A stretch of DNA of 48,326 bases from an uncultured archaeon (lineage in GTDB: Archaea > Asgardarchaeota > Lokiarchaeia > Sigyniarchaeales > SOKP01), in assembly GCA_964583985.1 (NCBI GenBank), contig CAZOYD010000023.1:1-48326 (forward strand), given 5' to 3'. The translations under genes were made by a program, and so were the position numbers. Each line of letters starts with the position of its first letter. Within the stretch, counting starts at the first letter, position 1. Under the pieces are notes generated by a model that did not search any database, was not told where the DNA came from, and saw only the letters and a list, made by a program, of their open reading frames with translations. Shown here one piece after another: positions 19,962 to 23,862 of the stretch.

Positions 19962-20576
19962 TTAAAAAGCCATTAAAATTAATAGGAATCCTACCATTAT
20001 GATTGTACCACTAACAGTTGATACCCAAGTAAAGATCACAAAACCAATGATGAGCACAACCCACCATGTGTAAGGAACTTTGATATCGATTTTATCGAAT
20101 AATGTTAGAAGTAAAATGATTGCAAATATAATTCCCACTATTGCAATTGCAATATATCCCCCCATAATAAACATTATTGACTCATAGATTGCCCAACATG
20201 CTCCAATTAACGTGACTATTTTAGAAGCAACATAAGTCTTATTCTGGCTTAATATCTCAATGATAGCAGCGGTAATTATTAAAATTCCTGCTAAATAAGA
20301 TGGTCCTACTAAATATTCAAAGAGAATTAGTAAGCATCCAATAATTAATAGAACCCACCAAATATAAGGAATCTTTAGTTTCTTAAAATCAATGATTTCT
20401 AATGAATCGAATATCACAAAGGCAATAATCAATCCTATAACACCTAACAAAATAGCTAACCAGTACGTTGTGTAGAAATAATTAATGCTATCTTTAATTA
20501 GAACTAATGTACCTATGAGAGCAACAACTCTGGAGGCGGTAATTCCAACTTTAGAGCTTTCACCCATATTTATCAC
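19962..20576 (-). CDS. Polytopic membrane protein with an internal two-fold repeat
   Basis: About 8 hydrophobic segments; ASRVVALIG/ASKIVTLIG and KIPYIWWVLLIIG/KVPYTWWVVLIIG. Confidence 0.75.
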   Translation of the reverse strand: MINMGESSKVGITASRVVALIGTLVLIKDSINYFYTTYWLAILLGVIGLIIAFVIFDSLEIIDFKKLKIPYIWWVLLIIGCLLILFEYLVGPSYLAGILIITAAIIEILSQNKTYVASKIVTLIGACWAIYESIMFIMGGYIAIAIVGIIFAIILLLTLFDKIDIKVPYTWWVVLIIGFVIFTWVSTVSGTIIMVGFLLILMAF

Positions 20577-20660
20577 TTTTTATAAATATTATATCCTAAA
20601 TCTGATTAGACTTAGAATATGAGTATAGCTAGAATTTATCGTATTTAATACTACCTATTA

Positions 20661-20683
20661 AAAGTTTGATAGGCTCAAACTTT
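20661..20683. repeat. Perfect 9-bp inverted repeat (terminator hairpin or operator)
   Basis: AAAGTTTGA-taggc-TCAAACTTT downstream of the SECIS and upstream of the membrane-protein gene. Confidence 0.55.
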
Positions 20684-20716
20684 AAAAAATTAAAAAATAA
20701 TGGTTAAAACATTAAC

Positions 20717-20786
20717 ACCGAAACCATTGCTTAATGATTAGTCTTCTTGTGACTACGGTTTTTTCACAAAAGTCATACTTATCGGT
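20717..20786 (-). ncRNA. Eukaryote-like SECIS element in the mvhD 3' UTR
   Basis: Minus strand reads AUGAC-UUUUGUGA-AAAAACCGUAG-UCACAAGA-AGAC: AUGA/GA core (20776-20773 and 20743-20742), 8-bp stem, A-rich loop and outer ACCGA/UCGGU pairing. Confidence 0.8.
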
Positions 20787-21248
20787 TTATTTCTTTTTTT
20801 TCCCTTTGACATCGTCCTTCTCTTTAATAGAGTCAGAAAGTCTCGTGGGATTGTTACCTAAATTTTCAATTACTTCTGAAATACGGGTCACTTCTTGTTG
20901 AAATCTTTGACCTTCTGCAGCACTACAGTGAAACATTTGGATTCGTTCTGGATTCAATCCCGCTGTTTTTAGGATCTCTTTGGTATATTCCACATTTTTC
21001 GCAGCAACGAGATTGCCAGTTTCATAATCACATTCACCTTCATATCATCCTGCGACAATAACTCCATTAGCTCCCTTTCCTATAGCCCTCATCATCAAAC
21101 TTGGCGTGACTCTACCCGTACAATTGATTCTAATCGGTCTGATGGTTGCAGGATATTGTGCTCGGATGGTTCCAGCCATATCTCCTGCTCCATATCCTCA
21201 TTTCCAACACATAAACGCAATAATCTTTACTTGATCTTTTACAGTCAT
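20787..21248 (-). CDS. mvhD: Hydrogenase iron-sulfur subunit MvhD/VhuD, selenoprotein with 2 Sec
   Basis: MTVKDQVKIIAFMCWK-U-GYGAGDMAG...IRINCTGRV...GANGVIVAG-U-YEGECDYETGN...GLNPERI; in-frame TGA at 21198-21200 and 21045-21047; GAGGT SD 9 nt upstream (alternative ATG at 21257). Confidence 0.9.
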
Positions 21249-21263
21249 ATTTTTCATACCTCT

Positions 21264-23234
21264 CTAAATTTCTTCAAGAATTGCATCTATTTGAGATTCA
21301 TATTGGGGTTCACGATAGTATCTAAGAGTAATAGCCTCAGAAGGACAATTAGACAAGCAAGACCCACATCCTCGACAGAGAATCTCATCTACATCTGCAC
21401 CGTCTGGTTTTAATGAAATCGCATTATAAGGACAATTTAATTCGCACAAACCACATTTTGCACATTTTTCCTTATCTACAGTAGCCCGAATCAGCATTAT
21501 CCTGTATTTATCTTTTCCCATTATACGGCTTACTGATGACGCGGCAGCTCTTCCTTGGGAAATTGATTCTGAGATCGATTTAGGACCTTGTGCTACTCCG
21601 GCTAATACAATACCAGGAATTTTTGTGTCAATTGGATTTAAACGTGAATGAAATTCCTTGAAAAAACCATCTTGACTATTTTCAAGCTTTAATAACTTTC
21701 CAATTTTCTCAACACCTTTTGCAGGCATCATTGCACAAGATAAAACCACTAAATCAAACTCGATTTCCTTTAAACCAGAACTTGAAAGAGTATTTTGCAT
21801 TATCACTTTAAGATTATGGGTTTCTGGATCTTCATTAATTTTCGAAATATTCGTCCGGACGTATCTTATTCCTTCCTTCCTTGAAGCTGTATAATATTCT
21901 TCATAATCCTTCCCAGCTGCTCTAATATCCATGTATGCTACACTGATATCTGCATCGGGATAGTGTTGTTTGATTAATTTTGTATTCTTAATTGAAATCA
22001 TACAACACACCCCAGCACTACAGTATGTTTGCTTATTTAAATCTCGGGATCCTACACATTGTATGAATAGTATGCGCTTTGGAGTCTTTCCATCTGATGG
22101 TCTGGCAAGATGTCCTACTGTCGGACCGTTAGGAGCAAGTAATCTTTCAAGTTTCATTTGAGTTATTACATTAGGATATACGTTATAACCTAAATAACCC
22201 GTTTCAGGCTCATATTCATCCCAACCTGTCGCTACTATGATGGTGCCTACTTTGATTTCTATAATCTCATCTTCTTGATTAAAATCAATAGCGTTCACTT
22301 CACAAGCTTTTTCGCATAATCCACATTTGATACATCTACTCATATCAATTTGAGCTTTTGAGGGAACAGCTTGAGCAAATGACACGTAAATTGCCTTTCT
22401 AGTATTCATGCCTTCATTGAATTCATCGTATCCATAGGATGGACAAACTTCAAAACAAGCTCCACATCCATTACAATCGCTCTTTACATACTTAGCTTTT
22501 TTTCTAATTTTCACATTAAAATTTCCAATGAATCCAGAAACATCTTCAACATTGCTGTAAGTATATAGGTTTAAATTGGGAGTTCGAGCTGCTTGAAGCA
22601 TAACCGGACCGAGAATTCAAATGCTACAATCATCAGTAGGAAAAGTTCGATCGAGCATAGCCATCTTACCACCTATTGTAGGGCTTTTTTCCACGAGATG
22701 CACTTCAAATCCCTCATCGGATAAATCAATTCCAGCACTCAATCCAGAAACTCCGCCTCCAATTATTAAAGCCTTTTTTGTTATATCAACTTCTTTTACA
22801 AGTATTTCTTCTAACAAACTGGCCCGAGCAACTCCAGATTTTATTGCATCTTCTGCGGTTTTTTGAGCCCCCACCTTATCTTGGCGATGTACAAAACTTG
22901 CATGTTCTCGAATGTTAACAAATTCTAAAAACGAAGGATCAATATTCATAGATTCAAGAACGCTTTTGAAAACGGGTTCATGAGTTTTAGGAGTACATGA
23001 TGCTACAACAAGGCGATTAGCGTTACTTTCATTCATTTTCTCTTTTATAAATTCCGCTCCTGGTTCAGTGCATAAACTGATATAATCTGATGCATCAACC
23101 ACATTAGGTAAGGTCTTGGCAAATTCAGCGAGTGCTTTAGTGTCAATGATTTCAGCAATATTAATTCCTCAAGCACAAACACTAACAAAAATCCGTATTT
23201 CTTCAGTATTTTTTGTAATCTCTGCTTCTACCAT
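21264..23234 (-). CDS. hdrA: Heterodisulfide reductase subunit A, selenoprotein with 2 Sec (656 aa)
   Basis: One frame from ATG 23234: RIFVSVCA-U22-GINIA (TGA 23169-23171), SCTPKTHE, NIREH, GGGVSG, DRTFPTDDCSI-U206-ILGP (TGA 22617-22619), QCVGSRD, YCSAGVCC and four ferredoxin motifs. Confidence 0.93.
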
Positions 23235-23421
23235 TGCATATTCTACCTTTTTATTTTTTAGATATCCTCCTACATTAATTACATAATATTTCAAAATATT
23301 TTTTACTTTTAAAATATCTTATGAGAAAAAATAATTTTAAATCAAAAATCTATTATATATCTTTTATAAGTTATCAATTTAAAAATGGTTTGATATTAAA
23401 AAAAAATAATTCGTTTTAATA

Positions 23422-23862
23422 ATGCTATTAAATTTATTTCAAGGAACTGGGAGCGCCTCAATGGGTGAAATAATTACTTACTCACTTGTTGCTGGGGTAT
23501 CATTTCTCTTTATGATATTATTTTTAAAATTAGGATTAAAAGTGGTTAAATCAAGGACTAAAAAGGGATTTAAATGGTTAGCTATAAGTATTATTATGCA
23601 ATTGTTTATGGTTGCCTTGTTAGCTTCTCCATTTATTCTTATAGGATTTGCAGGGGGATTTAATGATAAAGGTCCTTCGCCAGGTTTGATAATATTCGCC
23701 ATCATAATAGCAATATTTATGGATCTAAATATTATTAATATCCTTCATAAAACGGGATTGAAAAAAGCTATTTTATGTTTTTTTCTGATGATCGTTCCAC
23801 TCGTATTTGGAGGTATTATTGGGTTTTTCGTGGCGCAATTTAGGTTATTTATTCCAATCTGA
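23422..23862 (+). CDS. Four-helix membrane protein of unknown function
   Basis: 146-aa ORF with four hydrophobic segments. Confidence 0.65.
   Translation: MLLNLFQGTGSASMGEIITYSLVAGVSFLFMILFLKLGLKVVKSRTKKGFKWLAISIIMQLFMVALLASPFILIGFAGGFNDKGPSPGLIIFAIIIAIFMDLNIINILHKTGLKKAILCFFLMIVPLVFGGIIGFFVAQFRLFIPI

Follow-up and report, generated by a model that had tools for sequence, protein, structure and literature searches.

A Loki-type SECIS element downstream of mvhD and its probable service to four in-frame UGA codons in an archaeal hdrA-mvhD operon

Introduction

The adjacent genes hdrA and mvhD (vhuD) of an uncultured Sigyniarchaeales archaeon each carry two in-frame UGA codons, and a single candidate SECIS element lies just behind the second gene. 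The question that this locus – part of a 48,326-nucleotide stretch of DNA, analysed in full and referred to here as the window – raises is whether one 3′ element can recode all four codons as selenocysteine (Sec), at distances of up to about 2.4 kb and across a cistron boundary, as an earlier note on this DNA had proposed. In no domain of life is it common for a 3′ signal to recode several stop codons spread over two successive genes. In Methanococcales there is usually one SECIS per selenoprotein gene, and some of these elements lie in 5′ leaders.

Elements of this kind have been reported for Lokiarchaeota, as the earlier note had stated. Mariotti et al. (2016, Mol Biol Evol; PMC4989117) find in all Loki HdrA-VhuD tandems a single lokiSECIS, which lies downstream of vhuD, and regard it as probably common to both genes of a polycistronic mRNA, where it would serve as many as six UGAs within ~2 kb; their text also states that HdrA never ends in UGA, and that existing SECIS tools fail on lokiSECIS elements. 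The shared arrangement is extended to 227 Sec-using Asgard genomes in the account of Huang, Xiao & Zhang (2024, ISME J; PMC11227280), where hdrA and frhD/mvhD 'almost always share the same' structure. The relevance of such elements to the origin of the eukaryotic selenocysteine system was pointed out in 2016 and generalised in 2024. Because the shared SECIS is published in both of these accounts, the present locus is a further instance of a known arrangement, and its hdrA-mvhD element is a new example and not a discovery.

Here, we confirm the arrangement on a larger set – 80 loci, with Cys-type paralogue controls and stop-codon usage – and add precise coordinates and further support for a three-way junction in the lower part of the element.

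Results

Organization of the hdrA-mvhD locus

Both genes lie on the minus strand, as do all other features of the locus described below. The frame of hdrA (heterodisulfide reductase subunit A; 21264..23234), read directly, contains UGA codons at 23171-23169 and 22619-22617, which we read as Sec, and closes with a UAG at 21266-21264. Its product aligns over the full length with Methanothermococcus HdrA (5odc_A; E 3e-203) and contains Fer4 and FAD/NAD-binding domains (Pfam). Both UGAs fall in Cys columns of the alignment to 5odc_A, in which one of them occupies the canonical Sec site near residue 200. The second gene, mvhD/vhuD (hydrogenase delta subunit; 20787..21257), encodes a FlpD domain (Pfam PF02662; E 1e-42) and ends in a UAA at 20789-20787; its UGAs, at 21200-21198 and 21047-21045 and likewise read as Sec, both align with X (Sec) positions of 9sfi_K.

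The stops and the intercistronic gap were also read directly. The hdrA stop is separated from the first mvhD AUG (21257) by the 6-nt, Shine-Dalgarno-like AGAGGU (21258..21263), or by 15 nt from the second in-frame AUG (21248), in agreement with the 6-15 nt of the earlier note, and short gaps or overlaps between hdrA and vhuD are also present at orthologous loci. Measured upstream from the AUGA of the candidate element, the UGAs stand at 2395 and 1843 nt (hdrA) and at 424 and 271 nt (mvhD). About 20 nt 3′ of the element are two U6 runs (20684..20697), found in a U-run scan of the sense strand, which by their sequence are likely to be an archaeal termination signal; the same scan found no such run at the hdrA-mvhD junction. 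A scan with bacterial-type promoter and terminator models, which are not meaningful for an archaeon, gave chance-level counts. The two genes would most likely be carried on one mRNA, whose 3′ end would be at the oligo-U stretch directly behind the element.

The assembly comprises 3.8 Mb at 31.7% G+C. The closest VhuD loci, with up to 92% amino-acid identity, all belong to Promethearchaeota (Asgard/Loki-type) MAGs, and the sequencing-run matches to the locus are all DNA contigs of salt-marsh and sediment metagenomes. The HdrA-MvhD module is greatly expanded in this genome: it has nine or more additional mvhD paralogues of the Cys type, and hdrA-like genes are numerous (contigs C1, C5, C7, C11, C13, C16 and C21), with three successive hdrA-like/mvhD-like sets at about 10-21 kb of C1.

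A Loki-type SECIS follows mvhD

The complete element, as delimited by a covariance model (R1), by covariation and by constrained folds, is a 70-nt three-way junction at 20717..20786. In the mRNA the 5′ side of its core, AUGA (20776-20773), is placed 10 nt past the mvhD stop, and is followed in order by CUUUUGUGA, AAAAACCGUAG, UCACAAGAA and GA (20743-20742), the 3′ side of the core, in a 9+11+9 layout. Helix II is formed by CUUUUGUGA (20772-20764) with UCACAAGAA (20752-20744), in eight standard pairs and a basal C.A; this basal position is unpaired in ~40% of orthologues. The 11-nt apical loop AAAAACCGUAG (20763-20753; AAAAA...AG) is A-rich in its first five bases and has G, after A, as its last. 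The core, eight-pair stem and A-rich loop are thus where the earlier note had placed them. All five lokiSECIS features given in PMC4989117 are found in the element; the description there comprises AUGA, a 9-bp stem, an 11-nt loop (first five bases A-rich, AG end) and GA after the stem.

R1 was trained exclusively on 73 foreign vhuD-downstream elements, with the window left out, and matches the window at 20707-20790 with 75.9 bits (E 4e-15). A search of all Rfam families returned no SECIS, either at gathering score in the window or at E<=10 in 20400-23500, and the sole match, to sR5 inside mvhD, is due to chance. Scoring with covariance models, which the earlier note had suggested, therefore succeeded with the Loki-type model and gave no match with the eukaryotic SECIS models of Rfam.

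The element is conserved. Among 74 aligned elements the UGA of AUGA is invariant and its first A is at least 90% conserved; the GA 3′ of the stem is likewise invariant in the alignment, and C comes next in more than 90% of elements. The exact geometry is present at 73 of 80 foreign Sec-vhuD loci and a one-base length variant at 7 of 80. Overall, 87.8-89.1% of cells are paired, and compensatory double changes – another of the proposed checks – occur in 16-17 of 17 pairs, and in 9/9 pairs of helix II. The observed pairing values were reached by none of 500 shuffles, and slid controls were 29-50% paired. The support for the SECIS is comparative and not thermodynamic: unconstrained RNAfold of the 3′ UTR yields a minimum-energy fold that differs from the SECIS stem (z -1.4 to -1.6), so that plain folding, also proposed in the earlier note, did not recover the hairpin. 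Unconstrained folding is uninformative for kink-turn RNA.

The distribution of the element across the genome shows a strict association with UGA-containing genes. A strict motif has six copies in the 3.8-Mb genome and none in 11 reversed or shuffled genomes; all six end ORFs with in-frame UGA, namely four HdrA-VhuD pairs, VhuU and a small membrane ORF, and copies of a looser motif lie behind PrxL and others. The element is present at 4/4 Sec-type HdrA-VhuD pairs in the genome (42-76 bits) and behind 0/9 Cys-type mvhD paralogues, where the best score is 13.8 bits. This pattern bears on whether the hairpin is something other than a SECIS – a terminator, an mRNA-stability element or a generic L7Ae-binding kink-turn. 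Its position at the operon 3′ end, just before the oligo-U runs, and its kink-turn-like GA/GA core would be in keeping with such roles. However, the occurrence of the element exclusively behind in-frame-UGA ORFs, its absence behind the nine Cys-type paralogues, and the combination of invariant AUGA, A-rich loop and fixed geometry, which are not terminator features, make these roles highly improbable. The element is confirmed as a Loki-type (Asgard type I 'eSECIS-like') SECIS.

Some variation was seen among related loci and genomes. The fourth HdrA-VhuD pair, at C60:15640-18163 (plus strand), has a VhuD that keeps the first Sec only, with Cys at the second site, and in its SECIS the stem is followed by AA and not GA; an AUGA_AA variant is mentioned in PMC11227280. 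Among 150 first-look candidates scored per genome, the vhuD-type model matches 17/17 congeneric genomes, with 3-10 copies each, and 0/12 genomes of three other families of the same order.

One element for four UGAs

With filters off, the next-best R1 match in the 48-kb window scored 16.9 bits (E 0.27), and hdrA, its leader and the gap were all without a match. The methanococcal GAA/A-type SECIS, which the earlier note had set apart from the present element, had no strict hits in 23400-20500, where a looser scan returned two sites, both A/U-only and no more than chance would give. Excess local structure was not found after either hdrA UGA (z +0.57 and -0.25), nor were covarying local hairpins found after the UGAs. 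In a de novo sliding RNAalifold scan of 49 non-redundant operons, the SECIS alone stands out as a covarying structure. The scan of the hdrA coding sequence that the earlier note had called for thus gave no second element of any tested kind.

Two local candidates were considered and rejected. The hairpin at 21193-21140, after the first mvhD UGA, has -20.8 kcal/mol and z -2.66; 82% of its pairs are kept in orthologues, and it was rejected because these pairs fall on invariant codon positions 1-2, with third positions varying without compensation, so that it is probably a by-product of coding. A 6-bp complement within hdrA (22007-22002 with 21969-21964), which emerged from the alignment-fold scan, likewise reflects codon conservation without compensation.

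These searches weigh on the possibility that hdrA is served by a separate recoding signal, not of a recognised type and situated in the coding sequence or leader, and that the 3′ element acts for mvhD only. The usual one-element-per-gene pattern of Methanococcales favours such an arrangement, as does the fact that recoding over 2.4 kb and across a stop/start junction has no known experimental precedent. Against this stand the absence of a second Loki-type match in the window and at 80 orthologous loci, the absence of a GAA/A-type element, the unremarkable local structure after both hdrA UGAs, the whole-operon scan that yields the 3′ element only, and the avoidance of UGA as hdrA stop. We regard a separate hdrA signal as unlikely; if there is one, it may be of an unfamiliar type, inside hdrA and devoid of conserved secondary structure.

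The avoidance of UGA is part of a broader pattern at the orthologous loci. Each of 80/80 foreign loci (hdrA, vhuD and flanks) has exactly one element, always just 3′ of vhuD, and UGA is used as the hdrA stop at 0/65 loci and as the vhuD stop at 19/80, although such counts overstate the independent support, because the orthologues are phylogenetically related. Such stop-codon usage would be predicted for an element that can act on an hdrA stop but sits too close to that of vhuD; the argument is that of PMC4989117, repeated here on a larger set. The same figures argue against a second possibility, that the hdrA UGAs are read without a SECIS – by context-dependent read-through, leaky Sec-tRNA or decoding by Cys- or Trp-tRNA – and that the element is for the mvhD UGAs only. 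SECIS-independent UGA read-through does exist in other systems, but a generally leaky UGA would not fit the contrast between vhuD and hdrA stops. Moreover, the HdrA paralogues of this genome that contain UGA are those upstream of element-bearing vhuD genes, and the Cys-type ones are without UGA. Reading without a SECIS is in our view quite improbable, somewhat more so than a separate hdrA signal.

One shared 3′ element is the best reading, because all published hallmarks are present and no second element of any tested kind occurs in hdrA, the gap or upstream. The conclusion that a single SECIS serves all four UGAs in both cistrons, as the earlier note had put forward, is accordingly well supported, by inference from comparative data. 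Taken as a whole – a Loki-type SECIS after mvhD/vhuD, hdrA and mvhD on one mRNA, and all four UGAs recoded by that SECIS – we consider this account probable. On such an mRNA, the single 3′ SECIS, together with a reader protein, an archaeal Sec-specific elongation factor and Sec-tRNA(Sec), would lead to decoding of the four UGAs as Sec; it would reach the hdrA UGAs 2.4 and 1.8 kb upstream and the mvhD UGAs 0.42 and 0.27 kb upstream.

A three-way junction in the lower part of the element

The conserved region extends beyond the published core, stem and loop to include a closing helix (helix I) and a side hairpin. Helix I pairs ACCGA (20786-20782) with UCGGU (20721-20717), and the side hairpin, of 7 bp with the loop AAGC, occupies 20739-20722. 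With helix II constrained, a three-way junction is predicted for 85 of 89 vhuD-type elements versus 31.5% of flank-shuffled controls. Among 59 more diverse elements from 17 congeneric genomes the junction is predicted in 42 and the side hairpin in 52. The side hairpin covaries, one pair, for example, being AU in 41 elements, UA in 21, UG in 8, CG in 7 and GC in 3, and a G in its loop does not vary within the vhuD set.

The sequences of helix I are wholly different between gene families, with complementarity kept. Its pair counts in the alignment (~80% paired) are too low, because MAFFT and the model misalign helix I in ~40% of rows, where the spacer to AUGA is one base shorter. Helix I was judged by constrained folds and by a test of cognate versus non-cognate flanks, in which cognate flank duplexes average -7.4 kcal/mol versus -4.6 kcal/mol for non-cognate ones (p about 1e-12).

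The literature models span the core, upper stem and loop only (as presented in PMC4989117 and PMC11227280), and neither the closing helix nor the side hairpin is mentioned in the main text of the papers of 2016, 2021 and 2024 or of a 2026 review, whose figures and supplements may differ.

Selenocysteine machinery

The genome contains the machinery for Sec insertion, part of it clustered on contig C27 (14433-20957). The gene for tRNA-Sec (C27:19492-19584) is about 200 nt from that for SepSecS (C27:19800-20957; 372 bits), and a SelB-like gene (C27:14433-15320), at 233 bits just below the bacterial cut-off, is about 4 kb away. A PSTK-like gene scores 158 bits over its full length, below cut-off, and SelD, at 184 bits, has one in-frame UGA. 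A long SBP2-like protein was not found in the genome, in which the L7Ae family is represented by two short ORFs of 123 and 127 aa; in the literature, SBP2 is likewise not found in Asgard archaea. An Asgard-specific hypothetical protein is reported in PMC11227280 to be encoded beside Sec genes.

Other selenoprotein candidates

Several further ORFs adjoin SECIS-like elements. A 148-aa ORF at C126:649-1092 (plus strand), with no Pfam match, has two adjacent in-frame UGAs (...HAD-U-U-ADN...) and is followed by a Loki-type SECIS at C126:1121-1155 (39.5 bits). Its homologues number 24 and come from 16 of 20 congeneric genomes. Every one of them contains in-frame UGAs (two in 23 of them, three in one), and several are directly upstream of model matches. 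Database entries for this family are mostly truncations of 114-118 aa, and it is not among the seven Asgard selenoprotein families as given in the text of PMC11227280.

A second ORF, at C52:7962-8162 (plus strand), encodes a 66-aa predicted membrane protein (...GGG-U-GC...), again with no Pfam match, and its UGA stop abuts the AUGA of a SECIS with 9/9 pairs (C52:8163-8197; 42.6 bits). Seven homologues in the genus have one in-frame UGA each, and five of the seven adjoin a model match; the ORF is a candidate small membrane selenoprotein. A 56-aa hydrophobic ORF at C9:23300-23470 (plus strand) contains, three codons ahead of its stop, a UGA that may encode Sec or be the real stop, and precedes a SECIS-like element at C9:23491-23525 (39.1 bits) with loop GAAAAACCUAG and a helix I that would be of A/U pairs only. 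Finally, a putative variant element at C7:63417-63498 (minus strand; 37.8 bits), with a GUGA core and irregular stem, lies behind a 37-aa zinc-ribbon-like ORF (CxxC...CxxC) that ends in UGA.

Discussion

The locus poses a question of mechanism, namely how, in a host that lacks SBP2, a 3′ element would act over 2.4 kb and past a cistron boundary; this instance is no more open to test than the published ones. From the lokiSECIS tandems of PMC4989117, as described in its main text, there is no essential difference: the gene pair, its order, the very short gap and the single element close after the vhuD stop are the same, as are the multi-Sec HdrA, including the site near residue 200, and an hdrA stop that is never UGA. 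The genome is another one, and the closing helix and side hairpin do not figure in that text. The Asgard type I element of PMC11227280 is described by a GA_[G/A]A core, an upper stem of 7-15 bp with up to two mismatches and a loop of 8-20 nt, all of which are matched here; that model consists of core, upper stem and loop, whereas in the present element a conserved three-way junction makes up the lower part.

The VhuD SECIS of Methanococcales and Methanopyrus (Wilting 1997, as cited in PMC4989117) lies behind the orthologous gene and is one element for two UGAs, and the two elements also have AUGA (5′ side) and GAC (3′ side) in common. As described there, it has an extra stem, and a GAA/A bulge with a G-C upper stem; the bulge was not found in the element behind mvhD, the reach of which would extend to the upstream cistron.

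Kink-turn cores with a third helix are known elsewhere. The k-junction of the TPP riboswitch (Wang et al. 2014, NAR; PMC4005666) is a three-way junction on a G.A/A.G kink-turn core, its third helix being coaxial with the C helix. The predicted secondary structure of the SECIS resembles it, with the third helix inserted opposite the AUGA strand; the likeness is in secondary structure only, and the function is unrelated. The SECIS may adopt a kink-turn or k-junction fold and would be recognised by a protein partner. Tentatively, and with more doubt than confidence, we suggest that the published Asgard SECIS model is incomplete, and that the closing helix, which is conserved, and the side hairpin, which covaries and has a conserved G-pyrimidine in its loop, make the element a k-junction. 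Its lower domain might then be the docking site of the archaeal SECIS reader, enabling recoding kilobases away and across a cistron boundary, and might later have been replaced by the eukaryotic two-helix SECIS with SBP2.

The earlier note had described the element as having eukaryotic SECIS grammar, and this is true in part. Location in the 3′ UTR and the proposed action at a distance are shared with the eukaryotic type I SECIS (RF00031, SECIS_1), and the likeness in structure is limited to the AUGA/GA core and the A-rich loop. In contrast, RF00031 gives no match, the upper helix is shorter here, and the 3′ strand carries an additional hairpin, between core and helix I, as a third arm. The eukaryotic element has two helices, I and II, separated by an internal loop, and is read by SBP2, whereas that described here has three arms, belongs to a host without SBP2, and would act from a polycistronic mRNA.
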